NCBI GenBank assembly: GCA_051362555.1
Contig: CM120641.1
Coordinates: 992,001-1,056,000 of the forward strand
Direction of reading: 5' to 3'
Origin: Lingula anatina
Taxonomy: Eukaryota; Animalia; Brachiopoda
DNA length: 64,000 bases
Shown: one piece after another, positions 3,003-52,200 of the stretch
How the letters are laid out: each line of letters opens with the position of its first letter
How positions within the stretch are numbered: the first letter of the stretch is position 1
Translations under genes and position numbers: made by a program
The notes under the pieces: generated by a model
The model's input: the letters and a program-made list of their open reading frames with translations, nothing else
Told to the model about the DNA's origin: nothing
The model's database searches: none

Positions 3003-3744
3003 CTGAAAGTTGAAAGAGAAGATTCATCAAGCTGGTTTTGAAATCTTATAACTCGTTCCTAGAAAATTAATAGTGATGAAATTTTAAAGACAATGGAAAA
3101 ATAATTATGAATTTAATTCAAATGATCAACAGACATTAAACTTTGAATAATCTATCTTACAAGCCCGTTAATTTGGAAGTTTCAAAATTAACAGATCATT
3201 ACCATCATAATAAAAAAATAGTTTCACCAAAAACAATAAACATATTTTCTAAATTATATTTGAATCATTCTACAATTTAAACAAAAATGTTGGGGCGAGC
3301 TTTTTAACGTCTAATAACACACTTATGACCAATACAATCAGCTACCTTTATAACAGCAAAACAGGTTTAGAAATCAAGTCATTCTATTTCGTCAGTTAGA
3401 AATTTTTATTTACTTCTAGTTTTTTTTTTCGTCAATATAAATTAATTTTACTTATAAAGTTAAGTACAAATTCAAAACCTAGTCAGTGTGTATGCTTCTG
3501 TTGTGAAATGTTTCAAAACTCTCCCCAGACGTCGGCACTGTTTTACTCTATAAATCTTTTTGTCTACGTAATTATATATTTTACGTAAAACCTGTACTCG
3601 CAAATTTAGATTTATCCTCTTTTGCCTGCTAAATACAAACAATAGGTTTGTATCAAGTTTGAACGTTGAACACATCATCGTAACCCCACAACAAGTAACA
3701 CGATCTGAATGTTTGAAGCAAAAAGAAACATCGGCATGATTTAC

Positions 3745-6700: not shown

Positions 6701-9700
6701 TCAGCGAATGTATTTTTGGTGCTCAGAGAAGAGTGGGCTTTAAAGGCCTGCGAAATAGTTTGCCGAAAATTAAAACATAATTGGAGACGAAATTGCTCGA
6801 TGCAGTCGCTAAGCAACGCACAGGCACTAAGCATCTTCATCAAATATTTTTTTCACGGGGCAACCATATAACGACTAAACTCTTTCTTCGTCAAAAATGT
6901 ACGAGCCAATTCTGTTTATGTTTCCGCGTGTAATTCACACGTTTTAATTTCAGTAATCATGATGTACTGGTATTTCGATTAGTTTTCTGCGCACTTTAAA
7001 TGAATATTGGCAAAAGTGGTGGCTTATAACGGCTTATACAAGGCCTCTCTCTCCGCCCAGCCTTTTCAAGTTGGCCTATATGAGAATCGCATTCCAACGA
7101 CGATATATATTCCTGCACCAAACCAAAACCTTAAAGTGAAATCGTTGTCCTCAGTACGCACTCATACATGAACGCCTCTGTAAGTTTTAATGCATTTAGA
7201 TTAATACAGAATAAGGAACATTCTTAGCTATAGTGTATGGAACTGATTATCAAATAGGGAAATAGGTTATGCCTTTTTTCCTCAAGTCAGTTTTATACAT
7301 AAAATCTGTAGATATTTAATTGAATTGAAATCGAATATTACAACTTTAGCTATTAAAATACAATGCGTGACAAAAAATACTAAAATCTAGGAATAAAGAA
7401 ATTAAGTGCACGTAAAATCCGATATCAGGGAGCTTCTTTTCTTAACTTTTAGTGATGTTAATAACTTATTCAAGATAGCTCTGTCTATTTAAGATTGTTT
7501 GACCTTCTGCATGCAAAGTGTCCAGGTATTGCAGGAGCTATCCTTAATTCAAATTCTCGACTCTTTTAAATTAGAACAACGTTTAATTTTAAAGGGTGTA
7601 ATTTTTTTTGATAAATGCGGACGATGAACATAATTTAATATCAATGTGTAATTTATACAATACTGAACAAATAACACGCGTGTACTTATGCTTTTGTCTT
7701 AAAACGAAAATGCTTTGAAAATATAATTGTTTATTGAAAAAAATATGATTCCTCTTTTTTAATCCTGTGATGGTAAATAATATTATTTTCCATATTTTCT
7801 AATCAAGCGGCAGCAACAGTAACATGTTTTGGACAATTTAGTATATCTACGTTCCAATGCAATCAACGATCCCGTAGGGTCAGGGTGGTAAATCTAATTA
7901 ACGTATTTCTAATTATGTAATTATTAATTACACGGCTAGCAAAGTATCAAAACAAAGCCTGGGACTTAGTCTTAATCGCAGATAACACGGCTTAATAACG
8001 CTATCAGTTTCATCGGTTAATTCCTGCGAGGGATGGAGCTAATTATCTCTCTTTGGGTTGGATTTCACTCCTAATCAGCCGTGCGCGAGTACTGGTTTTA
8101 ATCACCTTTCTCACAACTAATTGAAACTGATGATCTAAACGATAGGTGGTTCACCGCTGCAAGTGAAGCTAAATTTCTGAAAGTGAAATATTCATCCATT
8201 CACAGTTATAGCACGGAGCGGTGTGGATTGCGACCCTCTCAAAAATCTGGTTTTCTCATTACAAAATTTCCAGGGTTTTTCAATTGATGTAATTGTAAAG
8301 AGTTTATGTGGGGCAAGATGGATTTTAAGTATTTCAACATACCTTGATCAAGCCGTTAATATATCAAGGATGTAGTATACTCTAATATTAAGGGCTGTGT
8401 CACGTTTTATCCGATTTGTGCAAGGTTAAGTTAATATTTTTACCAAGTGAAATATTTATATTGAGTCATACTATTTCAATAGGAGGATATTGAAGACATT
8501 ATTGAAGATCTATCAATACATATTTCTCTCGTAACTAGTGTTCGCCTCTTGTTAAAAATAATTTCCAATTTGTACACAGACAATTGAAATAAATTTGGCC
8601 CACTTTATAACCTCACATATTTTTAGGACTTTTAAACAACTGTTATAGAAAAAGTTGTTATCTAAGTCGCAATTGCAAACAATCAAAGCTAAAAGCTTAT
8701 CTCTTACAAATAGAATATAGAGAGAAATGCTTTCTAATTTTAAACGTCGCAAGTATTAAGGTTTGTTTATCAAAATTGCTACCTAGCCACACTGAGTGAG
8801 GTTACCGAATCTCAGCAATAGAATTCATTTTTATAGCTTAGTATGAAAAACGCTGGTTTTACAGTTATCAGACACTCACGAGTACACCCTATCACCATTA
8901 CTATATGTGCTTCTCTTCACTGAGCCTGTGTGTCAAAATGTTTTGCAAAGCATCTCTACTACCCGTTACTGCTGTCATGCATCTTTCCACAGTCAACGTG
9001 ACATATTTATGTTCGCTCGCTGTAAAGATGGACGACATAGCGACACTCATTTGACAACCTAACAGCTTGGAAAACAAAGTGTAAAGCTTGAGAAAATTCG
9101 TTCTTTTCAACATTGAAAGTCGGGTTGCTTTACTAGTTTGTCTATGTTTCAGGTAAATATTTATATCATCGGATAAGATCGACAGTGGTCATCGAAACTG
9201 ACATTCAGGGTAAAAATTTGGCGTGTACGAAAATCAGCGAACCGTTGACGTGACAAATGGCGTGAGCACGTAATAAAATGCTCCATTGGCATCCTTATCT
9301 TCTTGTCGATAAGCTACACCGAGTTTTCACACAAACCAACAGTCAAGACAGATGTTTATGAAAAAAAGGCATGAAACTACGGTGTAAACAGTTTCTCTAC
9401 ACACCATCTTGTCAACATTTAGTCAACAATATTTTGAAAATCTGTAAAATCCTTAGGGAAAAATTCGGCCGCATATCAAGTTCGCAACCAGAACTTGTGC
9501 TTTCTTTTAGAATCAGGCCAACTTTTTTCAACCATGGGCCTGAATTAATGAGTTTTATATTAAAACTGATAACTCGTTTGGTTGGCCATATGTGAGTCGG
9601 TTTTAACATCTTAGCTTGTTTGTTTGTATAAATTATAGGATTTAAGATTTAACTAAATAACGCCTTATTGTGTTATCATTCGCGGCAAGAGGCCTTTGAT

Positions 9701-16803: not shown

Positions 16804-19585
16804 ACTAGAGGATCAGAGAGGCGATACCGCCTCCAAATATTGTACCACCAGCTGGAGCAAACGCATTCGTATAGACCCCCACATACACAAAATAAGGGAC
16901 ACAGCCACCAGTTTTGTGCTTGACAAGCTGTAAAAATGCATTCAACAAGAATTTTTTAACTATTGCAAAAAATATATATGGTACAATCAAATTTAAGTTC
17001 TTCGTAAGGTAGGTCAAGGGTCAATTTCAAGGTCACAGTAAATTGCCAGTATATGACTTCCTATTCAAGTTCAAGAGTAATTATGGACCTATCTCTGTCA
17101 AGTTTGAAGTTAAAAGAGAAAGAAATTAGCAGAGTTCAGTTCATGATAAAAAGTAGGTCAAAGGTCAATTTCAAGGTCACACTTAGATTGCCAGTATAGG
17201 ACTTCCTATTCAACTTCAATAGTAACTATGGACCTATCTCAGCCAGTTTTGGAGATAAAAGGGAAGCAAAATTTGCAAAATTCAGTTCATGGTGAAAAGT
17301 AGGTCAAAGGTCAATTTCAAGGTCACATTTAGATTGCCAGTATATGACTTTCTATTCAAGTTCAATAGTAACTATGGACCTATCTCTGCCAGTTTTGGAG
17401 ATAAAAGGGAAGCAAAATTTGCAAACTTCAGTTTATGGTGTAAAGTAGGTCAAAGGTCAATTTTAAGGTCACATTTAGATTGCCAGTATATGACTTCCTT
17501 TTCAAGTTCAATAGTAACTATGGACCTATCTCAGCCAGTTTTGGAGATAAAAGGGAAGCAAAATTTGCAAAATTCAGTTCATGGTGTAAAGCAGGTCAAA
17601 GGTCAATTTTAAGGTCACATTTAGATTGCCAGTATATGACTTCCTTTTCAAGTTCAATAGTAACTATGGACCTATCTCTGCCAGTTTTGGAGATAAAAGG
17701 GCAGAAAAGTTTGCAAAGTTCAGTTCATGGTGAAAAGTAGGTCAAAGGTCAATTTCAAGGTCACATTTAGATTGCCAGTATATGACTTCCTATTCAACTT
17801 CAATAGTAACTATGGACCTATCTCTGCCAGTTTTGGAGATAAAAGAGAAGAAAAATTTGCAAAGTTCAGTTCATGGTGAAAAGTAGGTCAAAGGTCAATT
17901 TTAAGGTCACATTTAGATTGCCAGTATATGACTTCCTATTCAACTTCAATAGTAACTACGGACCTATCTCTGCCAGTTTTGGAGATAAAAGGGAAGCAAA
18001 TTTTGCAAAGATCAGTTTATGGCGAAAAGTAGGTCAAAGGTCAATTTTAAGGTCACATTTAGATTGCCAGTATATGACTTCCTATTCAAGTTCAATAGTA
18101 ACTACGGACCTATCTCAGCCAGTTTTGGAGATAAAAGGAAAGCAAAATTTGCAAAATTCAGTTCATGGTGAAAAGTAGGTCAAAGGTCAATTTTAATGTC
18201 ACATATAGATTGCCAGTATATGACTTCCTATTCAAGTTCAATAGTAACTACGGACCTATCTCTGCCAGATTTGGAGATAAAAGGAAAGCAAAATTTGCAA
18301 AATTCAGTTCATGGTGTAAAGTAGGTCAAAGGTCAATTTTAAGGTCACATTTAGATTGCCAGTATATGACTTCCTATTCAAGTTCAATAGTAACTATGGA
18401 CCTATCTCTGCCAGTTTTGGAGATAAAAGGGAAGAAAAATTTGCAAAGTTCAGTTCATGGTGAAAAGTAGGTCAAAGGTCAATTTCAAGGTCATAGTAAG
18501 ATTGCCAGTATATGACTTCCTATTCAACTTCAATAGTAACTATGGACCTATCTCTGCCAGTTTTGGAGATATAAGGGACTAGATGTTATAATTTTGGAGT
18601 TACCATAATGTGCCTTAAATTTCGTACAGAAAAAATTAATTAAATTAAAGAAAATGTCATTTTGGTCAAAATTCTTGAAATAGGAGGTGCTCTGAAGTTT
18701 CAGAAGTTCAAATTTGATGAAATAATGTCATTTTTGAACACAAGTTGTCTGCTTTGCCAAGCCTTATATTTTATTTTTCCAGAGTTCAAAATTTATTATC
18801 CATTACCGTACTGCACATTTTGCTTTTACCACCAATATGTACTTTTTGATACAGCGTAACTCGAAAACCGTATGGAATACAAAAAAACCGAGACCACCCC
18901 CAGTGTTGGGCTTTACATGCTCTACAAAATGCAAAAAAAAATGGGTCTCTAGCATTAACGGTTCCCGAATTAGAGACAGTTTTCAGTTTCGGTATCTTAT
19001 GGCCGCTACTCCCGTGAAAATGCACCGATTGACCCCAAATTCATGGAGATGAAAGATGACCTGAAGGGTAACACTTCCCAATAATATTATTGGTTAAGTC
19101 TGTGTGGTGTCTGAATAACAGGGCAAAAAAAAATTTTTTCGTAAAAAATTTCATTTTTTTGAAAATTTTGGCCCATTTGACCTTGAAGTAGAGGTCAAAG
19201 GTCAAATCCAAGGGTATATTTGAAATCTACACATATGACTTTTGGAAAGCCGTCTATAGAAATTTTTCCCATAACTCCTTCCATAGGGTAGATAATTAGC
19301 ATTTAATTTTGCCATTTTTAGACAAGGGTGCATTGCAATGAGTGCCACACCCAGACCCCAATACCGACAAAGCCCAAATTTTACGTGGAACGAGTTGAGA
19401 TTATAGGTGACCTAAATCCATGAGATGGGTACGAGGGCCCTTACCGTCTAGGAGGAGAAGCGGTAACGGTAGCCGTCCGGCGGAGCCGGCGGAGCCGGCG
19501 GAGCCAACGGAGCCGGCCGGCGGAACGATCCGGACGGGACCGAAACCATGTGTACCGCCAGCGCTAACGCTGGTGGTACAATAAT
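16804..19585 (+). mobile_element. Non-autonomous Helentron/HINE-like (DINE-1/pearl-like) element with internal 146-bp tandem array
   Basis: Starts ACTAG followed by a small hairpin (GAGGCG-atac-CGCCTC, 16818-16833). TATTGTACCACCAGC (16838-16852) is the exact reverse complement of 19569-19583. GC-rich CGGAGCCGG microsatellite at ~19478-19525. 3' hairpin TGTACCGCCAGCG-ctaa-CGCTGGTGGTACA (19551-19580). Confidence 0.75.
17005..18578 (+). repeat. Tandem array of ~11 copies of a 146-bp unit
   Basis: GTAGGTCAAAGGTCA-type unit starts at 17009, 17153, 17299, 17445, 17591, 17737, 17883, 18029, 18175, 18321 and 18467. Period is 146; the first copy is divergent and the last truncated. Confidence 0.97.
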
Positions 19586-23046: not shown

Positions 23047-23260
23047 ATTAGATTTATTATTTTCTGTAAAGTTCCTCGTCAGTTTGAGCCAATATAAATA
23101 TTTTGATATATATATATATCAAAATATTTATATTGGCTCAAACTGATATATATATATCAAAATATTTATATTGGCTCAAACTGACGAGGAACTTTACAGA
23201 AAATAATAAATCTAATCTGACATTGAAGAATGGTATATATATATATATATATATATATAT
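23047..23260. repeat. Complex inverted duplication (foldback) centred on (TA)n
   Basis: 23047-23105 recurs as its reverse complement at 23158-23216, with a partial extra copy at 23120-23146, separated by (TA)n. 23218-23235 is the reverse complement of 22960-22977. Confidence 0.9.
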
Positions 23261-38613: not shown

Positions 38614-39109
38614 TTAATTCTCAGTAGTCATGTCAGATGTACCAGCTGACTCATCAGTTTTTGTAATTCTTTGAGGCGTCACTCCTGACAACAATGCCTC
38701 CTCCTCATCAGAATCAATCTCCATTTCCTCGCCCATAATCACCCTTTGGTGAGTTATGGTAGGATCCTCTTTGAGCCTAATGTCCTTTGACATTTCCAGG
38801 CCTGCTGATGCAGTACTAGGCCCTTGTTTAGCAGGTAATGGAATGTGAATAACATTTTCACATATCCACTTATGCCGCTCAAAACCAAATTCTCTCAGGT
38901 CTCGAGCCACCTGCCTTTTCCAGTTGTTATTTTTCTTGCCTTTAGCTAATTCCAACTGACCCTTGAGGATAGCCTTTGCTTCCTCAAAGCATGTCACGGG
39001 GGCACATGGCTAATCTTTCTGCTAACTTTTTAGCAGAGGCAAGTCGTCCCTGGCGGTTGTCCTCTTTAAAACATTCCACCAGTCTTCTCCAATCTTCTGT
39101 TCTCGGCAT
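38614..39109 (-). pseudogene. N-terminal remnant of ORF3 from an older, related Gypsy family (TatD part deleted)
   Basis: MPRTEDWRRLV...LAERLAMCP/TCFEEAKAILKGQLELAK...FERHKWICENVIHIP...KDIRLKEDPTITHQRVIMGEEMEID aligns with the young ORF3 MDSRKWKDLV...LVDRVAMAPKDCLGQA...FRPHAWICDNVAQVP...RDIRLGTDPTIVQHTSYVGQSMEVD. One frameshift near 39000. Confidence 0.8.
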
Positions 39110-39590
39110 CTGTACAAAAACATAAGAGATTAAGAAAATAATTCACTTAAGTTAATTTAACTGTAAGCAAATCAATTCCTCTAAATCAGTACTTTTACTA
39201 TAATGCACATGATGGTAAAATTACCTGCTTTTCTTCTTCTTTCCCAGGCGTCATTATTTTATCATAAACAAAAGCCCTTCCTAATTCATAGTACTGGCAA
39301 GTGAGGACTGTGAAGTGCTGGCTAGTGGTTCTTCTAAACAGGACATGTCATTTTGAGAGGCTTCTCCTGTCTCCAATCCATCTAGTAACTAAATAAGAAA
39401 TATATCTGATATGAGTTTTCGAAAGCTACAATGACAACTATATCAAAATAAACAACTCCCCTTTTGCTGTTGTGAATTAAAATTGATGAGCGGTCAGAAA
39501 TTGCACGGTTTTCATTTTTCGTTACTCTTATCTACGTAACTGAAATAAAATATCATGAGTTAATACGGTGTTGGGAGGCAAAATATAATG

Positions 39591-39809
39591 TATAGCACCG
39601 GGGCTATGTATAAGCGGGTCTAAATAAAGGAAAAGGGCTTACCTTAACTTGATGGCTTGCCGATTCCGTGATTTCTTGATTTTACTACTTCTCTCTCAAT
39701 TGGCACTGCAGAGCGCCTTAGGCGCCATGCTCTAACTTGTCACACTCTATAACACTGCGCATGCGCCGTGACACGCTTCCGGGTCATATAATGACCCCTC
39801 GGCACTACA
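39591..39809 (-). repeat. 3' LTR of the Gypsy element
   Basis: Direct repeat of 49299-49517; reads TGTAGTGCC...GGTGCTATA on minus; preceded on minus by the polypurine tract GGGGGAGAG (39810-39818). Confidence 0.95.
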
Positions 39810-40020
39810 CTCTCCCCCGTTTTACCTTGAAGGACCGTGCCTTCTCGGCCGTATCAGTGCCGAATCACAAAAAAGCCCCACTTTCCACCGTGGGAAAGGG
39901 GATTACCCTCCGTTCCCCGTGGGACTGGGGGGGGATGGGTGCTTGCAGCAGTGATGGGCGTCCCATCAAAGCTACTCGTCCTGGTCAAGTCGCACCCGGC
40001 CTGACCACACCCTTGCCCTT

Positions 40021-42423
40021 CTAACCATCTGGGCCCCTTTTCTCCAGGTATAAAAGCCGTGCGTTATCCCTGGTCTGGCGCAACACTTCTCGCCATCGCT
40101 CTCCCCGGATCTCCGCCACTAACTTGGCCACGTGACCAAGCAGAGCTGGGGTAGAACACTTGTTCCGTTGAATGTTGAAATACGGAGCATCCGTCTCCAG
40201 GAGTAGTCTTCTCAGGGGCAAGGTTCGTAACATGTCATGCGCCTTGGCATTGACAGGCCCCTCGTGTTCTGCGAAGCGTCCCGTGACGCCGAAGTAGGTG
40301 TTCGGATAATAGCGAACAAAAGCCCGCACCATATCCGGGGAACCTAAAAAGCAATGACAATGGATTAGCTGTCGAGTCCCCACGCCCACAGCTCTCAGTT
40401 TGTCCAGTATGATATGCCAGACCGCGTCGTCGGCATCTGTGCTGGTGCTTAAGCCTCTCCCGTGGAGGACTAGCACATGGGTTGGCTCCAGGAAATGAAG
40501 AGCAGCCTCCAGGTTGGTCAGTTGATCCTCCCACCTGGACGGCATCACTGACATGTCCAGCCCGACCTCCCCCAGTGCCGTGACTGAGGGGTGGTTGATT
40601 ATGGACTGGAACTTAGCCCACTCCGTTGATGTGCAATAATGCCTAGGGTGCATTCCCACAGAAATGACCCCGCCTTCGTTTTTAATGGCCTCCATCTCAC
40701 CCTCCGTGGGGTAAGTATTCGGATCACAATAGATCGCCGTGAATCCATCGATCACCACAGGTTCCACCGTGGGAACGGCTGCTTGGATCTCTCTCAAACC
40801 AGCTCTGGCGTCCAGGGATAGTTTGGTCCGAGTCCGGTCAATATGGCAGTGGGAATCGTACCCCACTGGCGACTGAGGCAGCATCTGCAACTCCTCAGGC
40901 GATGGGCTAAACAACGAGCGGAATTCCTCCTGCCCCTGGATCAAGGTCATCAGATCCAGCAACACCTCCCATCTCAACAACTGGGGTATACGGCTGGACG
41001 TTCCAAGCCGCATATGCGCTCTAAGGGCATCTATGCCCACTTGATCAACAGGGCCACCCCTGTCCTCTACACTGGCAGCATCCAGTAAAATCTCTAGGGT
41101 CAGGTGAGACCCCACAATTCTCTTCTTTAGGTAATGAAGAGCTGCCACTCTCCGCTCCGTGATCCCTGGTGCGGAGCTCAATTCCGGATGAAAGATAAGA
41201 GGCAGATGCTCCTTGAAAGCATGCTCCTCCGACATTGGCTGGCCGCAGCCTGCCAAACAATACTTAGGCCGTGCCTCACAAGGGTGTTCTACTCTTTTCC
41301 ACGAGGACTGCCCCTGATGTGTACTCCCTTGTCTCCTATGAGGAGAACAAGAACTGTCACTTCCATATCGGCGCCGTGGCCTTTTGGCGGGAGGGTGAGT
41401 GGGCCTACCCCCTCTCTTGGAATATCCTCTTGCTGCGGGAGGAGCCATCAGTGCAGCTCGATAACTCCCCGGAGCCTCACTAGGGTACCGTGACCCTCCT
41501 GCTCGCTCCTGTGATCTCGGGTTCCGTGAACCCGTTAGTGGGTGTGGCGGGGGCCTCTTTGGTCTAGCACCCCTTTGTGCACCCCCTCCTCTAACAGGAC
41601 TACGCCCACGAGATTCCTTCCGCCTTGACTCCTTGACTTGCCACTGGAATTCTGGGCCTTCTGATCCTGACCCATGGTCAGTGGACTCAGAGACCCGTGC
41701 CCCTGATCCTTCCGTCACTGCCACAGAGTCTCCTGACTCTGACTCCATACGCTCCGGAGGCCGTGCTCTGGATTCAAGGCTTTCCAAGCCTGCCTCAACA
41801 CACATAGGCTCCGTGACCCTTGACTCTGACTCACCACCGGTTCCCAATTCTCTTGGATCGGTCACCGGCGGCACTTCTTGGGGAACCCGTGATTCCCCCG
41901 GTTGCTCCAACTGCGCTTCAGAGCTCCGTGGCTCTGTCTGCTCACTCCACAGCCCAGAGTCCTTAAACTCTGCCTGTGTCTCTAAGGGCGGAGTATCCAA
42001 CACCCGCTCTTCAGCCGGGCTGTCACCCCCTGCCTGCCCCTCCAAGACGGCCTCGTCAACCTCCATCGATTGACCCACATACGACGTATGCTGCACAATA
42101 GTTGGGTCCGTGCCCAATCTTATATCACGAGCGGGCCCCGTGGGCTCAGCTCGCACAGCCTGCCTGCCAGATGGAACCTGTGCCACGTTGTCACAGATCC
42201 ATGCGTGGGGGCGGAATTGCTTTTTCCTCCACTTCTCCATAGCTTTGTGCCGTGCCAAAGCTACTTGGCGCAATACTAAGCTGCTGGCTTGCCCCAGGCA
42301 GTCCTTAGGCGCCATCGCCACTCGATCTACCAACTCATCCATCTTCTGAATTGGCCATATCCGTCCCTCTGCCGTGCAGATTTCTATGTCCACCACCAAG
42401 TCCTTCCACTTTCTGCTGTCCAT
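40021..42423 (-). CDS. Gypsy ORF3 (env position), 800 aa: novel N-terminal domain, disordered acidic then basic linker, CxxxC..H..H motif, C-terminal TatD-family nuclease (~40040-40865)
   Basis: TatD motifs in order: YDSHCHID, SVGMHP, ALGEVGLD, VLVLHGR, IHCHCFLG, YFGVTG, LLLETDAPY, and a terminal TRDNARLLY helix. The ORF is uninterrupted and lies inside the LTRs. Confidence 0.9.
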   Translation of the reverse strand: MDSRKWKDLVVDIEICTAEGRIWPIQKMDELVDRVAMAPKDCLGQASSLVLRQVALARHKAMEKWRKKQFRPHAWICDNVAQVPSGRQAVRAEPTGPARDIRLGTDPTIVQHTSYVGQSMEVDEAVLEGQAGGDSPAEERVLDTPPLETQAEFKDSGLWSEQTEPRSSEAQLEQPGESRVPQEVPPVTDPRELGTGGESESRVTEPMCVEAGLESLESRARPPERMESESGDSVAVTEGSGARVSESTDHGSGSEGPEFQWQVKESRRKESRGRSPVRGGGAQRGARPKRPPPHPLTGSRNPRSQERAGGSRYPSEAPGSYRAALMAPPAARGYSKRGGRPTHPPAKRPRRRYGSDSSCSPHRRQGSTHQGQSSWKRVEHPCEARPKYCLAGCGQPMSEEHAFKEHLPLIFHPELSSAPGITERRVAALHYLKKRIVGSHLTLEILLDAASVEDRGGPVDQVGIDALRAHMRLGTSSRIPQLLRWEVLLDLMTLIQGQEEFRSLFSPSPEELQMLPQSPVGYDSHCHIDRTRTKLSLDARAGLREIQAAVPTVEPVVIDGFTAIYCDPNTYPTEGEMEAIKNEGGVISVGMHPRHYCTSTEWAKFQSIINHPSVTALGEVGLDMSVMPSRWEDQLTNLEAALHFLEPTHVLVLHGRGLSTSTDADDAVWHIILDKLRAVGVGTRQLIHCHCFLGSPDMVRAFVRYYPNTYFGVTGRFAEHEGPVNAKAHDMLRTLPLRRLLLETDAPYFNIQRNKCSTPALLGHVAKLVAEIRGERWREVLRQTRDNARLLYLEKRGPDG

Positions 42424-42470
42424 CTAGAAATAGAATGAAACAATTAAGTGCACATTCCATCTCATAGCTC

Positions 42471-43763
42471 TTAAGCTCTGCGTATACAGTCTTGACATTT
42501 ATATTTATTAATGCTTAAGGCATCCGTGGCCGTCACATTAACACATGACCCGTGATACCACTCCCCGCAGTAATCACATTGCAGCATAAATCTACCCTGC
42601 CAGGGTTGACGGCAACTGCAATATACTCGGTCATCGCCCCTCGCCGTGGAGTCGGGCACTGGATTCTTCCTCCAATGTTGTATCCACTGGGGCACCTCCT
42701 TGTCTCGACAAGGCTTCAACCTGTCGTGGTTGGTCACAAAGACTGCATTCCGCACCTTAACGCGGAACAGGTTTGAACTGAGCCGTGCTACAATTAAACC
42801 TGGCCCCCTCCATGGTGGGCACAATTTCTTACACTTCCCCTTTGCTGCCACAGTATCCAGCACATACACTGTATCTCCCACAGCATACGGTCGTTCAAGT
42901 ATCCTTAAGTCATAGTCCCTCTTCATTCTTTTAGAGGCTACTCGCAGTTTACCCCGAGCCGTCTCGTGGGCTTCCATCAGATCAGCTGCCAACCGTGCGG
43001 CATAGCTATCTGAATCTTCAAAATTGATGCTCCTCCGTGGGAACATTAAACCTGCAGGTGCGTTCGCCTCCCTCCCCAACATTAACCTGTTGGGAGTGTA
43101 CCCCGTCATCCGGTTTACAGATGCCCTAAGTGCCCCGGCAATCTGTTGTAGACGCAAGTCCCAGCCGTTCGGGGCCTTCTCCGTGAAGCAGCGCACCGCA
43201 TCCATGAGAGTGCGGTTATAGCGCTCTACCTGGCCATTGCTGGCCGGCCGGTACGGCGTAGTACGGGCCTTGTGAATCTCGAGCACAGAACACACTTCAG
43301 TGAACAGCTTAGATTCGAAATTCCTCCCCTGGTCCGTGAAAATCTCCAAAGGGACTCCAAACCTGGAGAAAAATTGATCTATCGCGGCCCGTGCCGTCTC
43401 CTCCGCTGACTGTGATGGTAAGGGGATACATTCGACCCATTTCGTAAATTGGTCGACCATCATGAGTATGTACTCATTTCCCCTGGCAGTCTTCGGCAAC
43501 GGTCCCAAGAAATCTAAGTGCACCCTCTCCATAGGCGCACCTGCCTGGAATTGTGTCAGAGGCACTTTTCCCTGCCTTGCAGATTTCTTATTCTGGTTAC
43601 ACCGGGTGCACCCAGAAACGAAGTTTTCTGTCGCTCTTCCCATCCCGTACCAATAGAATCCCTCCTTGAGCCGATCCTTGGTTCTTTTCGCTCCCTGATG
43701 GCCTGATGATGGCAGACAATGATGTAGTCGGATGGCTTCCTGTTGCCATGCCATGGGTAGCAC
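42471..43763 (-). CDS. Gypsy integrase with C-terminal PHD finger (42486-42626)
   Basis: HHCC (HH..PSSGH...CTRC), DDE core (HLDFLGPLP, TDQGRNFES, NGQVERYNR), GPY/F-like WRGP, then VYCSCRQPWQGRFMLQCDYCGEWYHGSCVNV...YKCQDC (C4HC3). Confidence 0.93.
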   Translation of the reverse strand: MLPMAWQQEAIRLHHCLPSSGHQGAKRTKDRLKEGFYWYGMGRATENFVSGCTRCNQNKKSARQGKVPLTQFQAGAPMERVHLDFLGPLPKTARGNEYILMMVDQFTKWVECIPLPSQSAEETARAAIDQFFSRFGVPLEIFTDQGRNFESKLFTEVCSVLEIHKARTTPYRPASNGQVERYNRTLMDAVRCFTEKAPNGWDLRLQQIAGALRASVNRMTGYTPNRLMLGREANAPAGLMFPRRSINFEDSDSYAARLAADLMEAHETARGKLRVASKRMKRDYDLRILERPYAVGDTVYVLDTVAAKGKCKKLCPPWRGPGLIVARLSSNLFRVKVRNAVFVTNHDRLKPCRDKEVPQWIQHWRKNPVPDSTARGDDRVYCSCRQPWQGRFMLQCDYCGEWYHGSCVNVTATDALSINKYKCQDCIRRA

Positions 43764-46700
43764 TAACTTTTTATCCTCAGTCTCTGATCACACCTGTATA
43801 GCAGACCCTCTATGATGATAAACAAATCCCTATCCAGCCAATAGGATTTTAAGGCCTGGCTGCCTAGGAATAAGGTAGACTGATCAGGTAGCTTACCACT
43901 TTCCAAGCTCTCCCTGATCACACTCAGGTCTGCATCCGCCTCCTGTGCTGCATGGACCTCCTCCACCGAATAACCCCAACTGGTGAGTCGTGAAGACCCG
44001 TGGTCCTTCACCTTGACCTCACCCTCTGCTTTTCCCTCTTGAAGTGTGGATTCCTTATCACACTCCACCGTGGGAGGTTCTTCCTCAGGAGTTATCGGCG
44101 CGTCGCCTGTATCTTTATGCCCGTGGCCACGTGCACGTCTCCGAGTAGTAACTGGAGCTACTCGAGGTGTTTCCCCTTGACCCCAGGGAATCTGATCTAA
44201 TACCGTCTGTAAGACCTGGAACTCTAGCGTATCCGTGATACACTCTTCCTCTCTGCATACCTCACCGAACACCGTGTGTTCAGAGTACACATTCACTGGA
44301 TCCACCGTTACTGAGCGAACCGTCTTGCCATCGTTGTTTTGCTGACCTTCTGAAATTTCAACGCTGTGGATATCCTCTGTATCCCGGTACGCACCCTGTG
44401 CTAGCGGAATAACATCATCCACTTCCTCCTCGAAACCCACCCAATTCTCGTGGGCCCGCCTGCAATACCCGCATCCACCACATGGTAGAGCATCCAGCCG
44501 CCCCCTGGTGCCTGCTTTGCACTGCCCCATGTGAGTCGCTCTAGACAGCGTGTCCGCATTCCCATGTTTGCGCCCGGCGCGATGAGACAACACCATGTCG
44601 TACTGTGAGAGCTCTTCCAGCCATCTCGCCAGCTGACCCTGCGGCTCCCGAAATTTCATCAGCCATCTTAAACTCGAATGGTCAGTCCTAATAGTAAATG
44701 GTTTCCCCAATAAATAGTACCTGAACTGTCGGGTGAATCGTACCACCGCCAAGAGTTCCTTACGTGTCGTACAATACCTCCTCTGTTCCCTGGTTAATCC
44801 ATAGCTACCGTAAGCTATCACTTTCTCCTGGCCATCTTGTACTTAAATAAGCTCTGCTCCTATAGCAAAGTCACTTGCGTCTGTATCTAAAATGAACTCT
44901 CCGTCCACCGTGGGAACAGAAAGAACTGGGGGAGATGTTAATGCCCCCTTTAATGCCATAAAAGCCCGTGCTTGTTCCTCACCCCACTCGTAACTCTTTC
45001 CAGTTACAGTGTACAGGGGTGCAGCTATCTCACTGAAGTTTTTAATAAAGGCTTGATGGTAATTAGCCAAGCCCATGAATTTCTCCACATCTTTGGCACA
45101 TGTTGGTGTAGGCCAGTCCGTGACAGCCTTAACGTCATGATCAGACATGGAGAGCGTCTCCCCTGTCACTATCCGTCCGAGAAATTCAATCTCCTTCTTA
45201 AAGAAGGTGCATTTCTTTGGCTTAAGCTTCAGCTCGTAGCTGCGGAACCTCTCAAGGGCGTCCCTTAGGTTCTGTAAATGCGCATCAAAAGTAGTACCGA
45301 GTACCACTATGTCATCTAGAAATTCCAGCACAGTTTTCCAGGACATTCCACGGAAAACTAAGTTCATTATCCGAGCATAGGTCGCGGGCGCCCCGCACAG
45401 ACCAAATGCCATAAATGCTCATAGAGACCATATTTCGTAATGAAAGCTGTCTTTTTCCGATCCTCTTCACGTATGGGCACCTGCCAATACGCAGAGTTGG
45501 CGTCTAACTTAGAAAAATACACATTACCCGACAAGGTATCCAAACAGTCATCGACTAAGGGTAATGGGAACACGTCCTTAGTGGTCATGGCATTCAACGC
45601 ACGGTAATCGATACACCACCTCACAGAGCCATCTTTCTTCCGTATTAACACTGGCGCCGGCGCCCAGTCGGAAGTTGACTCCTGAATCACTCCTGCCTTC
45701 AACATCTTCTGTAAATGGGCTTCCTCCTCGCCCACAAAGCACCGTGGCGTTCGCCGCATTCTCTGCTTTATCGGAAGAGCAGTACCGGTGTCTATCGTGA
45801 AGTTTCCTAAATCAAATTCATCTCTAGCAAACACATCTTGATACTCCGTGAGTAATCTCGCTAGCTGAACCTTCTGCTGATCGTCTAATTCTGCACTGGA
45901 TTCCTCATACACCTGCTTTAAATGAGAAGGCACGCGTCGCGCCTCATCATTGACCTCGTCATCGGTCCGTGCCGTGACTGACTGCACTGCTGGTGGTATG
46001 CAGTGAATGACCTCCGCCCCAGGTGACCTGCCACCCTCCCCTTGGTTACTAGGGAAACATAACGGATCCCCCAGGGGCTCCCCAGACGTTATAATACCCG
46101 CATAGGTAAAAGCCCGCCCCACTTCAGTACCCTTACGCAGTAGTCTGTGCCTCTCACTAGGATTTATGAGGACCATGATGGGTTCAGACCCCCCATTACG
46201 AATAACCCTGGGAGCAAGGAACTTACCAGTACCCCCCACCTTTGGCTCTATTACATAACTAGGAAGATCTACATCTAACTTACAGGCCACCCTGGCAGCG
46301 GAGTAAGGGGGTATCACCTGGCGCCGTGCGACAGTGACCCTGGCCATCTGAGGTGTTCCCTTATCTGAATTAGCGTCTAATGTCAGATACATGCCGTCAA
46401 ACTGCATCACTCCTCTGCCGACATCCACTACTGCCTGCCCTAAGTCCTTCATAATGTCCATTCCCAGCAGCATATCTTGTTCAATGGGGGCTACGTATAG
46501 CCTCACAGCATACCACTTATGTCCAATCTTTAACTTAACAGGGCCTGCTGTAAACCCCTGCATCACCATTTCCCGTCCAGCGGCTAAAAGCTGTACTGAA
46601 TTCAACCTCTTAGGTTGTTTCTTAAGACTGTTGTAAATGCGGTCTGAAAGTATCGTAACTTGAGCCGCAGTGTCCACTACAGCATTCACAGCAATGTTTC

Positions 46701-47045
46701 CCACTTTCATCTGAAGTGAATAATCCGCCACTGTTCCGATTTGTCGCACCACTACCATGGGAGCAGGAACCGTGCCCTCTATTCCCCCTGTGGTAGCCTC
46801 GTCTGCCCTGGTTGTTAATTCAACGTGACCCATATCACGGTTGGGCTTGTCTTGGACTAGTGCTGCCCCCTGTCGAGTTATACTGATTGCACACCCTGTA
46901 CCTCCGTGGGTACAGTGCACTTAATATCCGAAACTGCTGACTCCTCTGGTACCCTGAGTTTCTTAATGGGCTTATTTATAACATCTGGGCCTATGAATCG
47001 CTGGATCGAGGGTTGGCCTCCGGCCTCGACCCGGTGGAGTTTCCC
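43763..47045 (-). pseudogene. Gypsy pol (protease, RT, RNase H), interrupted by frameshifts and one in-frame stop
   Basis: Protease VVDTAAQVTI; RT RWCIDYRALN, LDANSAYWQ, KTAF, FLDD; RNase H DTDASDFAIGA, ELLAVV, TDHSSL, NADTLSR. Breaks at ~46880-46920, ~45410, TAA at 44843-44845, and ~43770. Confidence 0.92.
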
Positions 47046-49036
47046 ACCTGCGGGCACTCCCTTGCAATGTGCCCTTGCCGATTGCACTTATAACACAGCA
47101 CCGAGTTTCCAGTGCTGCCCCGTCCCCAGCTCCGCTGGTTTCCGGGTGCGGCTCCGTGGCCGTAACCGGTAGATGACCTCCTACTCAGCTCCTGGCGGAC
47201 ATCTTTCAACGCCTTCTCCATTTCCTTGATGGTATCCCTCATCTGTTCCAGCTCTGGAATGTTACCCTCTGCTGCAGGCGTCACTTGGTTGGCTCGCTTG
47301 GCTCCCGGGCGCAATTTCTTTCCCGCATTCTCCATAGTCACTCGCATTTCCCTATGCATCTTAGCCAGCTGCATCGCTTCCCTTAAGGTGGCTGGCTGGC
47401 GCATATAAATTGATTGACCTGCCTCTGAATCAATCATGCCCGCGCAGAACCGACTTACAGCCTCCGACTCCACGAATGTCCTAGGTAACTGAGCATACGC
47501 TTCAGAAGTCAGACGTAGCACCCTGACTCCCCATTCATCCACCGTTTCCGTCTCGTCTTGAGTAGCGTTATGTAGCTGCGACCGAACCGTAGCCGGTGTG
47601 TCCGTTTCTCCGTAACAGGTCTCTAATTCCTCCATGAGACCTTCATATGAGGGCTTACCTAGCCTGCGTGCGACGTTCACACAACAGTCTAGGGCCTTAC
47701 CCTTCAGGCAGAGGCATAGTGCATCCAGGGACATGTCGCGATCCCAATCCTCCCTCTCTGCCTGTCGTAAGAAAAGCAACTTAAAAGCAGCCCAACTTCC
47801 ATGTCCGTTAAAAGTTAAGCTCTTAGGAGGATTGACCTTCCTCCTCTCCATTGAGTCTTGTTCTGCCCCTAGCTCCGTGAGCCGTGCAGTCCTCCTCGAG
47901 GCCGCGCCCCGTTTCAATATAGGAGAGCCCTGGAATACAGGGTGTTCGTCCTGGCTACCTCCCTCCACTGGGGTGCTATGATACACAGAGTGCCCTGAAT
48001 TCGATCCATTTCCCACCACTGGAGATCCGTGATCCCCAGGGTGTACGACTGGAGAGCTGTGACTTCCAGGGTGTTGTACTGAGAATCCGTGATTCCCAGG
48101 GTACATGGCTGGAGAGCTGTGATTTCCAGGGTGCGGTACTGAGAATCCGTGATCCCCAGGGTGCATGGCTGGAGAGCTGTTATTTCCAGGGTGTAGTACT
48201 GAGAATCCGTGATTCCCAGGGTGCATGACTGGGGGACTGACACCAGGTGCCATTGGAGGGCTATGATTCCCAGGGTAACCCGAATAGCTGCCACCACCCC
48301 CCGGGCCAACAGCATACCCCTCCCCCCGGACATCCCCGGACATAGGAGTTTCCCTTACAACGCCCCCCCTTGGACTAGGTGTAAACAATTCAGGGGTGTA
48401 AACAGCCTTATCCTGTCTCCCGGGACCTAATGCTACCCCACCCCCCATGGGGCTAGGTGTATATGGAACATGAGGACCCCCCTGCTGAACCCCACTATTT
48501 ACATTCTTAACTACATTTTTACCTGGGCTCCGTTTAACAAGTTGAGGCAAATTCGCTCCCTCCAATCCACTGTCCTCGAATAACCTCTTCGGCACTGTGG
48601 CCTCCGAGTTACGATGTGCACTCATTTGACCCTCACAGCCTCCTAGCTGCCGCGTGCCACCTCCGTGAAGCGCACTTTCGCTATTGAAAGCGTTGCTCTC
48701 CTCCTGAGCAGAAAATCCGAAGAACAGTCCTGAAAGAAACCGGAAAAATCTCCATAGCCAGTTTCCAGATCCTCCTTTCTCCTGTCCTCTCCTTTCCGTG
48801 AGTGAAACAGCCGTGCTGCCCACACCCAAGCGCTGATTCGGCTCAAAGTCCACCATATCCAGCGTACGAGGAGCCAGTCTGCAGCACAAAGCACTTTCCA
48901 CTTGCCGCACATCTAAATTTCCAAATTGTTCCCTCAGTTCGGCTATTTTAAACACTTGGTCTTCCGTGAGACCTGGAGTCCGCATTAACTCATTTACGTT
49001 TGCATAGTTTATGAAATTCCTAGCGTGCGTCGCCAT
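46991..49036 (-). CDS. Gypsy Gag: HhH-like N-terminus, decapeptide repeats, capsid-like region, CCHC zinc knuckle
   Basis: Open frame (first ATG at 49036, MATHARN). FNGHGSWAAFKLLF capsid-like start, and CYKCNRQGHIAREC knuckle. Confidence 0.9.
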   Translation of the reverse strand: MATHARNFINYANVNELMRTPGLTEDQVFKIAELREQFGNLDVRQVESALCCRLAPRTLDMVDFEPNQRLGVGSTAVSLTERRGQEKGGSGNWLWRFFRFLSGLFFGFSAQEESNAFNSESALHGGGTRQLGGCEGQMSAHRNSEATVPKRLFEDSGLEGANLPQLVKRSPGKNVVKNVNSGVQQGGPHVPYTPSPMGGGVALGPGRQDKAVYTPELFTPSPRGGVVRETPMSGDVRGEGYAVGPGGGGSYSGYPGNHSPPMAPGVSPPVMHPGNHGFSVLHPGNNSSPAMHPGDHGFSVPHPGNHSSPAMYPGNHGFSVQHPGSHSSPVVHPGDHGSPVVGNGSNSGHSVYHSTPVEGGSQDEHPVFQGSPILKRGAASRRTARLTELGAEQDSMERRKVNPPKSLTFNGHGSWAAFKLLFLRQAEREDWDRDMSLDALCLCLKGKALDCCVNVARRLGKPSYEGLMEELETCYGETDTPATVRSQLHNATQDETETVDEWGVRVLRLTSEAYAQLPRTFVESEAVSRFCAGMIDSEAGQSIYMRQPATLREAMQLAKMHREMRVTMENAGKKLRPGAKRANQVTPAAEGNIPELEQMRDTIKEMEKALKDVRQELSRRSSTGYGHGAAPGNQRSWGRGSTGNSVLCYKCNRQGHIARECPQVGNSTGSRPEANPRSSDS
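48011..48230 (-). repeat. 30-bp coding minisatellite in gag (7 x PG[ND]H..S..H decapeptide, alternating A/B = 60-bp period)
   Basis: CCAGGGT recurs every 30 bp from 48036 to 48216. Confidence 0.9.
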
Positions 49037-49280
49037 TTTGCTTTCTCCTTGACGCACGTGTCGCCGAAAATCCAAGAATACTCCTTAAAACTTGAAAGAA
49101 TTAACTCCAAAAACACACTAAAAACACTCACCAGTCCGTGCTGGGGTTTCCTCTTACAAATTGAATCACAACAATAACAAAAATGGTAGCGTACGTGCCC
49201 GAGTACAGAGTTCAGCTCCGTGGCTGAAAACTCTTCTGCAGAAAAATTCGTAATTTATTCTGCAAAATACGGCACAAATC

Positions 49281-49298
49281 CGACCCAGCTGCCACCAA
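49281..49298 (-). other. Primer-binding site, probably tRNA-Leu
   Basis: TGGTGGCAGC lies 1 nt inside the 5' LTR and is complementary to the ...GCTGCCA-CCA 3' end of tRNA-Leu(AAG/TAG). Confidence 0.7.
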
Positions 49299-49517
49299 TA
49301 TAGCACCAGGGCTATGTATAAGCGGGTCTAAATAAAGGAAAAGGGCTTACCTTAACTTGATGGCTTGCCGATTCCGTGATTTCTTGATTTTACTACTTCT
49401 CTCTCAATTGGCACTGCAGAGCGCCTTACGCGCCATGCTCTAACTTGTCACACTCTATAACACTGCGCATGCGCCGTGACACGCTTCCGGGTCATATAAT
49501 GACCCCTCGGCACTACA
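49299..49517 (-). repeat. 5' LTR of the Gypsy element
   Basis: Direct repeat of 39591-39809; followed on minus by the PBS. Confidence 0.95.
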
Positions 49518-50230
49518 AATGAAATGAATAAGTCATTACTTCCCCTGGATACTTCAAGCTTCTGAACGACCTTCACTCGATGCTTTACCGTCTTCTCGAA
49601 CTGTTCACTTTCTCCGGTGTGTGGTCGTTTCATTGTCGCATGAATGGTAGGGACAGAATCTACCTTCAACGTCCTTTTTGTCTTTAAACCCAGCGTGTTC
49701 ATAAGCGGGGATGCGAAGCAATCTTCCTCGAAGTGTGCCCCACAAAGAACGGCCTGAGACGATGGTGAGGGTGCATGGAAATTCTTCCTTTTTGTTTGCA
49801 CAAATTTCACCCATTGGTGACGCAAATTAGGTTTTTGTGGAAACCTATGCAAGCTGTGCCCAGTATGCTTCGAGTTTGAGCAGTTTTGGGCAACACACTT
49901 TTTAACCATGATACAATACGGATGCTTTTACAGAGAACAACATCAATCCAAACGCGGCACCTGACTGACATAGAAAGCGGGTCACGTGTATTATATAGGT
50001 CAACCCCAGATCTACCAAATACGTGGCAACCTGTGACAGGCTATTTTGGTCACAGTGACTTGTTTTTATGTAGGTCAGCAAATTCGCTCTAAAAGCGCGC
50101 ATTTTTTAATCGATTTATTCACTAAAACGATGTCAGAAAATTTTGAAAAAAATATTTTTGTGCAGGATTAGTGTTCCTACATCAGGTAATAACAATATTT
50201 TGGGGTGTAAAACGGGCCAATACCTGCTCT
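49518..50230 (-). mobile_element. 5' part of a Kolobok-like DNA transposon with a THAP-domain exon (49909-~49544); probably continues at ~39590-39300 beyond the Gypsy insertion
   Basis: MVKKCVAQNCSN...HRFP...RHQWVKFV...LCGAHFEEDCF...LKVDSVPTI is a THAP zinc finger. The terminus reads TTAA|AGAGCAGG (50234-50223), the TTAA + RR signature of Kolobok. The other end was not found. Confidence 0.7.
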
Positions 50231-50256: not shown

Positions 50257-52200
50257 TTAATTAGTACCATGATGGGCTCTGTACCTGCACAGAATTTTAT
50301 GATGAGTGTCTATTACAGCTTGACCCCTCTGTTTTAAAAGATCAAATCCGAGTAGCATATCCTGTTCTATGGGTGCCACATACACCTGTTCTAGGTACCA
50401 TTTACTTCCTATTTTCAGTTTCACTGGCCCTGCAGTGAATCCCTCCATGGTCATGTTACGTCCCGCGCATAACATTCTCACATCATTAATTTTTCTTGGA
50501 GGATTCTTCATGCTTCTATATATTCGATCTGACAGTATGGTTACATCTGCTGCAGTATCCACTACAGCTTTAATCTTCTTATCTCCCACTTGCAAATTGA
50601 GCAAAGTGGCGAACCAATATTACATAACACTACCACAGACACGTCATTTTTGACTCCTTTATTTTTCTGCATCATTAACTTCTCATCTCCTTCCATTACT
50701 TTTAATGGAGAGGAATAAATATGTGCTGAGTTCCTCTCTTTAAGAGGCTTAAAACAGGGCTTTTCCCTGACGTCTGGCTCTATTGGATGCAGGGTTGAGG
50801 GTTGGCCTGTGTCCCCGGCCCTCTGCCATTTCCCTGCAGATTAGACGGACAATCACGGGTAAAATGGCCTCCAGCTCCGCAGGAAAATAATTTCCATTCC
50901 TTCTTCCTCTGGGAGTACTATGCCCTCTACCTGCAGAGTTATAGGACGTATTGGGGGTATAATTCCTTTGAATTTCGCGACCCCCACTATTAGTTGGTCT
51001 TTGAGTCATTTGTTGTTTTATCTCTTTAAGTGCCTTTTGCACCTTTTCTAGTTCTTTAAAATTCACCATATCAGAGATGTTACAAGATGACTGTGGCTCG
51101 TCACTGATACTAGGTTGCTGTGTTACACTATTAACCCTTTTGGTCATAGTGCGTCCCTTCTTTGTTTCCATGGTAACCTTTAGTTCCCTGTGCATTTTAG
51201 CTAATTGCATAGCTTCATGCAGGGTTGATGGACTTTGCGTATAAATGTCTTGTCCTGCTTCTGGATCCAAAAATGACATGGCTCTACCAACTGGACAGGA
51301 ACCATTGTTTGCACTACTTACTTTACCATAACAACTTTACATATCTTCTTCACACCCTTTTCCTTCACATAGAATATCCATGGAGGATAGGTCAGTTTCT
51401 TATCTTCTTCAATATCTTGATCTCGCAACAACTTACTCGCTTCTGCTAAATACAGGTTTTGGTTTTCAGTTGTGAAATTACGTGGCACCTTGCCAGAGAA
51501 TGTTGGAGTTTTAAACCTAAACTGCAGTGTTTGGACTAACTGCGGATATTTTATCCCACTCCTTGCCACCTGGAATCTGAAAAAAGTAACACAAATGACA
51601 TGGGTAAACCAGGGTAAGCTTGTGACGCGAGCCTTAGAACGCGCACACCCCATTCATCCACGGATTCCGTTTCACTCTGTAGTGAGTTATGAAGTCGAAT
51701 GCACAGTTACTGGTGTATCTGTTTCCCCATAAGACATCTCCAGTTATTCTCACAGGCCCTTATAAGTTAATATACCTTCACGTTTTGTGACATTCACACA
51801 ACACTCTTGTGCTTTTCCTATGAGACATAAACATAGTCCATCTAAACACATACTAGAATCCCAGCCTTCTCTTTTTGCATGACTCAAAAACACTAATTTA
51901 AAAGCTGCCCAGCTTGTTTTACCATTAAATGTTTAATTTTTTGGTGGGCATACTTTACGCCCGGCTGCTGGAATATTTGGACCTGAGGGTTCATCTATTT
52001 GCATAGGGGATTCCTGTGAATGAAAATATTCCTCCCCTCCAATTGGATTCATGGGTAAAGCAGGTGTATTGGCAATATTTGGGCCTAGATTTGAGTTTGG
52101 GTCAGGAAAACTAAGAAAATTAGGGTCAATTTGTTTCCTTTGAACCTCTGGACTAGCTGGAAAACTAGGAAAATTAGGGTTATTTATTTATGCCAACTGT
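50257..52200 (-). pseudogene. Decayed gag + protease of an older Gypsy related to the intact element
   Basis: KVCPPKN*TFNGKTSWAAFKLVFLSHAKREGWD...YGETDTP, DPEAGQDIYTQSPSTLHEAMQLAKMHRELKVTME and LQVGDKKIKAVVDTAADVTILSDRIY...AGPVKLKIG..WY...YVAPIEQDMLLG are all colinear with the young element. Many stops. Confidence 0.9.
51330..51575 (-). pseudogene. Short DIRS-like RT N-terminal fragment embedded within the old gag
   Basis: LQFRFKTPTFSG...ENQNLYLAEASKLLRDQDIE...WIFYVKEKG resembles DIRS RT (GY.L.F...P......E...LL.KGAIE....S.IF.V.KK.G). It interrupts gag colinearity. Confidence 0.45.

Follow-up and report, generated by a model that had tools for sequence, protein, structure and literature searches.

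Retroviruses and errantiviruses carry env between pol and the 3' long terminal repeat (LTR), and the env gene of retroviruses is expressed from a spliced message. The bdelloid elements Juno and Vesta, which are of Gypsy type, have at this site a third open reading frame (ORF3) that is not an envelope gene. It encodes a catalytically intact 3'-5' nuclease of unproven function; such ORF3s are typically expressed from spliced messages, and within a genome the bdelloid frames are reported to show no clear departure from neutrality (PMC5408684). A DEDDy-exonuclease ORF3 precedent is also given in PMC5718144. Here we describe a Ty3/Gypsy LTR retrotransposon in a 64,000-nucleotide stretch of the brachiopod Lingula anatina (assembly GCA_051362555.1, contig CM120641.1, positions 992,001 to 1,056,000; hereafter the window), whose ORF3 encodes a nuclease of the TatD family. 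ORF3(TatD) is the same idea as the bdelloid nuclease ORF3s with an unrelated enzyme, theirs being DEDDy and RNase H-like and that of the window clade a TIM-barrel TatD. The two systems also differ in that the TatD gene is characteristic of a large clade that spans several animal phyla, is under strong selection and encodes two extra domains.

Other described systems share single features with this element. Chromatin readers at the integrase C-terminus are known from chromoviruses (a chromodomain) and from one Ginger1 family (a PHD finger) (PMC12440569, PMC2836005), whereas in the window clade the PHD finger is found on an LTR-retrotransposon integrase throughout and is paired with the TatD gene. 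The MolGy elements of molluscs are large bivalve Gypsy clades defined by their reverse transcriptase (RT), and the window clade may be one of them; the accessible part of their description (PMC6238403) mentions neither ORF3 nor PHD nor TatD. No description of TatD in LTR elements was found in the literature, as judged from listings and term counts in a search that had Repbase, GyDB and subscription journals outside its scope. The term "TatD" occurs 0 times in PMC6238403 (with part of its supplements), PMC5408684, PMC6338049, PMC6431247, PMC2836005, PMC12440569, PMC10886601, PMC5718144 and bioRxiv 10.64898/2026.05.21.726589.

An initial annotation, made from the letters of the window, had described an unbroken 800-amino-acid (aa) frame between the integrase stop (42471) and the polypurine tract (PPT) and 3' LTR, with the TatD motifs in order. 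Both are present as described. The frame runs for 800 codons from its ATG without a stop, which would happen by chance with a probability of about 4e-14 at 56% GC, and the motifs DSHCH, GMHP, GEVGLD, LHGR, HCF and ETDAPY start at aa 523, 590, 618, 653, 690 and 743, respectively. PF01026 (TatD_DNase) matches aa 523-792 with an E value of 5.2e-34 and 118 bits against a cut-off of 27. It is the sole Pfam match in ORF3, with no DEDDy or RNase D fold of the bdelloid kind. A Foldseek comparison of the AlphaFold model with the PDB returned a TatD-type TIM barrel (best E 1e-11); among the matches listed, ranks 1-17, nearly all are TatD, YcfH or TATDN proteins and the two others are uncharacterised metal hydrolases. 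The group II features, an HxH motif plus a Glu/Glu/Asp triad (H525, H527, E619, E743, D745), are present and, as read from the sequence, the domain keeps all known catalytic residues (Table 1) and a predicted intact active site. The nearest database protein, from a gene model of Lingula anatina, has 5 substitutions relative to the window ORF3 and 8 residues that the latter lacks.

The view that this frame is not an envelope, also taken in the initial annotation, is borne out by the TatD fold and by hydropathy. No transmembrane segment is seen (top 19-residue Kyte-Doolittle mean 1.22), the first 40 aa reach at most 0.47 on the same measure, and there is no membrane glycoprotein of the kind found in env-bearing, errantivirus-like Gypsy elements. 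ORF3 shares with env its site and its predicted spliced subgenomic message, but differs in being a soluble nuclease with neither hydrophobic segment nor envelope fold. A fusion of ORF3 to pol was considered and rejected: a stop separates the two frames in 12/12 elements printed, and pol domains occur in 0/48 long representatives. The sole integrase-ORF3 fusion is a database entry (P0041) that we take to be a gene-model artefact.

Ahead of the TatD barrel, ORF3 has a helical N-terminal domain, a disordered linker and a middle domain (Table 1). The middle domain is present in 67/71 held-out relatives with room for it and the N-terminal domain in 28/46; both are found in 0/16 host TATDN2-like proteins. 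The C-x-C-x-H-x-H motif is kept in 74 of 82 middle domains, and the predicted fold of this domain is confident (predicted local distance difference test score 86.7). No structural match to it was found among 48,161 chains (best VIA Z 3.4), and against viral structures nothing reached E 0.001. The best Atlas score was 0.78, with weak C2H2 leads. The missing match for this modelled domain does not prove a new fold.

We assessed in two directions whether the arrangement extends beyond the window. A TatD-based search kept 80 metagenome loci, mostly weak matches (E above 1e-18) that are presumed to be bacterial. All three of the TatD-selected loci long enough for context (L005, L006 and L008) read gag-pol(PHD)-ORF3(TatD), and L006 has an open 1415-aa pol together with an open ORF3. 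The reverse search, by pol alignment, favours the window clade but is blind to TatD, and it returned 45 loci, most of them filed in symbiont metagenome-assembled genomes (MAGs) and probably host DNA. A PHD-ended integrase is present in 8 of these 45, and in 7 of the 8 the sequence runs on for at least 3 kb past the integrase core. The N-terminal, middle and TatD domains occur in all seven, in six as one open frame, compared with a TatD in 1/7 PHD-less elements with equal room (L096). Sixteen further TatD-selected contigs have the PHD directly upstream in 8, other pol pieces in 2 and no pol in 6, and four of the six pol-less contigs end at or near the ORF start. Altogether the same ORF3 position is seen in at least 18 other elements.

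The PHD elements cluster as a single group in the RT tree (20 rows; Shimodaira-Hasegawa-like approximate likelihood ratio support 99), and L096 lies outside it among PHD-less elements. Named ORF3 relatives come from Lingula, Pecten, Saccostrea and Lytechinus. One ORF3 cluster at 90% identity has 182 members, including a pol protein, and 101 clusters of a 50%-identity library match at E 1e-30 or better. In IMG/VR no clade member was found; it holds only 4 TatD loci at 27-29% identity, and no pol relative. Several observations count against the overall interpretation given below. A single assembly supplies 6/7 of the pol-selected positives (it has 22 element-type and 2 bacterial-type TatD matches), L137 and L162 have 0.7-0.9 kb upstream of ORF3 without a pol match, and a PHD-less sub-lineage carries TatD without PHD. 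In that sub-lineage (L096, positions 7518-9032; L137, L144, L162), ORF3 is about 500 aa long and consists of zinc fingers, part of the middle domain and TatD. The nuclease is thus not dependent on PHD targeting. Since the TatD of these PHD-less elements is sister to the main clade and also under purifying selection, the TatD capture may predate the PHD, or the module may have moved between lineages.

Some entries met in these searches deserve mention in their own right. The contigs behind L086-L114 and L137-L173 belong to a bacterial MAG with many animal-type LTR retrotransposon contigs. L094, a sister Gypsy element lacking TatD, carries immediately ahead of gag a frame of 270 aa (7304-8116) that by eye resembles an SGNH/GDSL hydrolase. 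A 42-aa member of an ORF3 cluster (P0060) is annotated as a Wolbachia phospholipase D and is probably a mis-binned fragment, and one representative (P0184) joins a sulfatase to an element-type TatD.

Sequence conservation indicates that the nuclease is maintained. Its catalytic residues are about 98% kept in 164 relatives (E619 161/164, E743 157/159, D745 154/159), as is the HxH motif in the aligned relatives (H525 134/137, H527 136/138). The ratio of nonsynonymous to synonymous divergence (dN/dS) of TatD lies at 0.14-0.17 in close pairs, nowhere near the value of about 1 that neutral decay would give. For two pairs with unsaturated dS it is 0.15 (L106/L168, dS 0.21, Fisher p 7e-12) and 0.14 (L144/L162, dS 0.13, p 2e-8), demonstrating purifying selection; in distant pairs the synonymous sites are saturated and dN is 0.3-0.7. 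The N-terminal and middle domains are less constrained, two small comparisons being not significant. ORF3 has also travelled with pol: integrase and TatD distances are correlated (Mantel rho 0.69, p 0.0003; 0.48, p 0.003 when L096 is left out), and the sister pairs L090/L103, L101/L106 and L085/L105 are recovered in both the pol and the TatD trees.

These results bear on two alternative views, that TatD rides along as neutral cargo or that a paralogue of host TATDN2 lies between the LTRs of this copy by chance. Public annotations do label these proteins as ordinary host genes, and the window copy has a broken pol yet an open ORF3. The frame nevertheless has no introns, and its N-terminal and middle domains are missing from all 16 host TATDN2-like proteins; for the clade, the purifying selection and the fixed position refute neutral cargo, and we regard such an origin as extremely improbable. 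That ORF3(TatD) is a conserved accessory gene of this Gypsy clade is, by contrast, very probable. The initial annotation had proposed a functional module of the lineage rather than a one-off capture, and this stands on the gag-pol-ORF3(TatD) order across many divergent elements, on purifying selection and on co-inheritance with pol. The evidence then offered for it, a relic in the same window, carries less weight. The relic is indeed homologous to the ORF3 N-terminus (tblastn 33%, E 2e-11; profile matches 39103-38993 and 38994-38743), but it retains no TatD, RT or integrase and so shows by itself only that the ORF3 N-terminus is old. No second middle-domain, TatD, RT or integrase match was found elsewhere in the window.

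To place the TatD domain we used a tree of 40 rows, a subset that includes E. coli TatD, YjjV and YcfH. The element TatDs, those of the L096 type included, form one clade (support 100/98), and together with animal TATDN2 and the unplaced locus L013 they split from the bacterial rows and the E. coli paralogues (99/98; 93/93 without L013). A phylogenetic comparison had been suggested in the initial annotation; a single clade grouped with TATDN2, away from bacterial TatD, is what it yields, and nesting inside TATDN2 is not seen. The cysteine of the CDP motif is present in 139/156 element rows and 15/16 host rows, and a CxP motif occurs in just 1/48 non-element loci; this motif, common to the element TatDs and TATDN2, supports their grouping. 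The cysteine of the HCF motif was discarded as a TATDN2 marker, as it is also found in most bacterial rows fetched. Like ORF3, animal TATDN2 has a C-terminal group II TatD with a Glu/Glu/Asp triad and, judged by motif, the two cysteine positions of the active site, as well as a long disordered N-terminal region. It differs in that identity is only about 28-34% and in that ORF3 is a separate clade, intron-free, transposon-borne and extended by two domains. Against descent from TATDN2, the element TatDs sit on a long branch beside, not inside, the sampled animal TATDN2 rows, and eukaryotic TATDN1 and TATDN3 are absent from the tree. For these reasons, that TatD was captured once from the TATDN2 lineage of animals is likely but falls short of proof.

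ORF3 is likely to be made from a spliced, env-like mRNA, as suggested by a conserved acceptor before its ATG and by donor-like sites near the LTR end. An acceptor, taken as a pyrimidine tract plus YAG in the 20 nt preceding an ATG, is present ahead of the ORF3 ATG in 10/13 elements, against 201/2454 other ATGs (a background of 8%). Among held-out PHD-type ORF3s, 6/7 that could be scored pass the same rule at their first ATG. Donor-like sites lie near the LTR ends, ahead of the primer binding site (PBS)-like sequence, and of the elements with a PPT-anchored LTR, the 8 that could be read far enough have a GTRAG site 160-320 nt inside the LTR region. In the proposed message, the donor upstream of the PBS would be joined to the acceptor before the ORF3 ATG. 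The mRNA would then have no priming site and would yield a free ORF3 protein fused to neither Gag nor Pol.

Other observations qualify this reading. The acceptor rule was set after the first 13 sequences had been viewed, the second ATG was the one scored for L090, and the rule does not hold in the PHD-less sub-lineage (L096, and the first ATGs of L137, L144 and L162, 3/3). No splice joint within the element was found in 8 RNA runs of the same species, of each of which 6-30% was read, and depth over ORF3, about 0-2, is too low for a test of splicing. Judged by neighbouring spliced genes, which serve as strand control, most of the few reads over ORF3 are antisense; the strand convention is set by these genes in three runs, and the other runs are assumed to follow the convention of their study. 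Separately, a 40-nt stretch before the PPT (window 39820-39861) is all that 50 and 27 reads, from two runs, have in common with the element before they diverge, and these probably come from a sister family transcribed antisense.

A function can be proposed from the biochemistry of TATDN2. Human TATDN2 degrades the RNA of R-loops, requires E593 and E705 and, for binding, its disordered N-terminus, and also cleaves hairpin RNA (PMC10711561), and medaka tatdn2 shields primordial germ cells from R-loops (PMC12709183). By motif, E593 and E705 correspond to E619 and E743 of ORF3. The free protein would be a nuclear, metal-dependent 3'-5' nuclease that strips RNA from RNA:DNA hybrids (R-loops), with the basic disordered linker binding nucleic acid and the TatD barrel degrading the hybrid RNA. 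R-loops might be cleared at the element's own loci, or at active promoters, the predicted targets of the PHD-bearing integrase, and this would benefit transcription, integration and the survival of germ cells. The PHD finger of the integrase is most similar to those of PHF8, KDM7A, PHF2, CXXC1 and BPTF, and the Y/F-M-W cage residues are present in 65/66 matched pols (120 pols examined). The PHD fingers of these five proteins read H3K4me3.

By analogy with TATDN2, R-loop RNA has about an even chance of being the substrate. TATDN2 itself is only minimally active on a plain RNA:DNA duplex and barely cuts DNA (PMC10711561), and other group II TatDs are described as 3'-5' single-stranded DNA exonucleases and apurinic/apyrimidinic (AP) endonucleases (PMC10085689), so the ORF3 substrate may differ from R-loops. 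Base composition lends R-loops no support: at four-fold sites the TatD clade shows no raised G skew on the sense strand (p 0.10), and in L096 the skew is towards C. The skew of RT and integrase as a whole differs (p 0.0006), which may reflect amino-acid content and kinship and is not used as support. Taken whole, the reading of a conserved, TATDN2-derived accessory gene, expressed from a spliced mRNA as a free nuclear 3'-5' nuclease that clears RNA:DNA hybrids, is tentative, its chances in our judgement being slightly short of even.

The DNA activities of TatD enzymes reported in PMC10085689 are in line with a different role, that of a replication helper. Associated with the particle or intasome, ORF3 would trim 3' ends of the cDNA or RNA primers left over, or it would repair abasic or blocked ends at the integration gap. 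Processing of 3' ends has been proposed for DEDDy ORF3s (PMC5408684), ORF3 is co-inherited with pol, and the conserved clade-specific N-terminal and middle folds could dock on Gag or integrase. Pol already supplies an RNase H, however, and TatD is missing from the roomy sister element L094 and from 5 more distant PHD-less elements. ORF3 is also a separate frame, unfused to Gag or Pol, and in three sister pairs its dN of 0.32-0.45 compares with 0.04-0.13 for RT and integrase, a rate several times faster and unlike that of a core replication part. We consider a replication role unlikely.

Rapid change beyond the active site and strongly variable linkers, both seen in ORF3, are characteristic of accessory genes that face the host, and ORF3 might accordingly serve in counter-defence, degrading host silencing RNAs or their precursors (structured or antisense) or the nucleic acids of competing elements. 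That TATDN2 cleaves RNA hairpins (PMC10711561), the antisense reads over the element and a separate-message layout like that of retroviral accessory genes would fit this role. No positive selection was detected, however, with measurable domain dN/dS all at or below 0.5, and the middle domain matches no known silencing-suppressor fold. Counter-defence seems to us quite unlikely. The hybrid-clearing reading can also be extended to a history in which a large and old Gypsy clade, active to this day in brachiopods, bivalves and sea urchins, took up an R-loop RNase of the host germ line, remodelled it by adding a new zinc-finger/helical fold, and came to express it as a retrovirus-style accessory gene that, together with an H3K4me3-reading integrase, handles RNA:DNA hybrids at active promoters. 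In this full form it is doubtful.

The window element is a young Ty3/Gypsy LTR retrotransposon on the minus strand, complete from 49517 to 39591 (Table 1). Its LTRs are 219 nt each and identical at 217/219 positions, a 4-bp target site duplication (TSD) flanks it on both sides, and the PPT and a PBS-like site starting with TGG are present. By Pfam the order after gag is protease, RT, RNase H and integrase, which is the Gypsy order. The pol of this copy is broken into four frames, in contrast to the open pol of L006, and the copy as assembled is therefore not autonomous. Both LTRs terminate in TA rather than the usual CA (window 39591 and 49299). Within gag, a 30-nt tandem repeat (window 48018-48239) encodes a proline/glycine-rich decapeptide.

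Table 1. Features of the ORF3(TatD) element and of related relics, in window positions.
Feature	Position	Strand	Remarks
TSD, upstream copy	49518..49521	-	CATT
5' LTR	49299..49517	-	Starts TGTAG, ends CTATA; donor-like site GTAAG, first G at 49350
PBS-like sequence	49284..49297	-	TGG start, 1 nt behind LTR
Second donor-like site, in leader	49126..49134	-	GTGAGT; candidate from sequence
gag, open	46991..49036	-	Retrotrans_gag and zinc knuckle; weak N-terminal helix-hairpin-helix match
pol piece 1	45367..46920	-	Protease and start of RT (Pfam)
pol piece 2	44843..45418	-	Remaining RT and start of RNase H, different frame (Pfam)
pol piece 3	43763..44842	-	RNase H (Pfam)
pol piece 4	42471..43787	-	Integrase (H2C2, rve); PHD finger at end, 42486-42626
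Predicted splice acceptor	42424..42450	-	Branch-point-like CTTAAT, pyrimidine tract, AG; abuts ORF3 ATG
ORF3, open	40021..42423	-	800 aa
ORF3 N-terminal helical domain	42082..42423	-	aa 1-114; clade-specific, no Pfam family
ORF3 disordered linker	41269..42078	-	Acidic aa 116-260, then basic aa 261-385 (30 K/R)
ORF3 middle domain	40894..41265	-	C-x-C-x-H-x-H zinc-finger-like motif and helical bundle
ORF3 TatD domain	40042..40869	-	H525, H527, C566, E619, H654, H690, C691, E743, D745
PPT	39810..39823	-	Abuts 3' LTR
3' LTR	39591..39809	-	2/219 positions differ from 5' LTR
TSD, downstream copy	39587..39590	-	CATT
Relic gag and protease of related element	50290..51959	-	
Relic ORF3 start of related element	38743..39136	-	Acceptor-then-ATG layout kept; N-terminal domain frame-broken; no TatD after

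Relics of a related element lie on either side of the complete copy. The gag/protease relic and the ORF3 relic probably belong to one older element. A THAP-domain frame (window 49518-49927, minus strand, Pfam E 1e-15) is present where the element inserted, either into it or just behind it, and we infer that this frame and the element are nested between the two halves of the older relic. The surroundings of the THAP region show no terminal inverted repeat. Further away, a frame at 2146-3045 on the minus strand resembles a paired-box (Pax) exon by eye. RNA reads show three spliced host transcripts, which provide the strand control mentioned above, at about 23.7-27 kb on the plus strand, 28.3-33 kb on the minus strand and 34-36.4 kb on the plus strand. 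The window also contains a 146-bp tandem satellite of about 10 copies (16977-18590) and a perfect inverted repeat of 71 nt with a 28-nt spacer (23047-23216).

Enzymatic ORF3s in LTR retrotransposons have so far been patchy, family-level cargo of unproven value. The ORF3(TatD) gene is clade-wide, strongly selected and small enough to express and assay, and it brings the role of non-envelope ORF3s within direct experimental reach. The gene connects retrotransposons with the germ-cell R-loop enzyme TATDN2 and contributes a domain whose fold is predicted with confidence but has no structural match. Many of the genes annotated as "TatD/YabD-like hydrolase" in Lingula, oysters, scallop and sea urchin probably belong to transposons, and animal elements of this kind are also present in some bacterial MAGs. 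If the proposed clearing of R-loops is true, ORF3 would be a transposon-encoded genome-maintenance enzyme.

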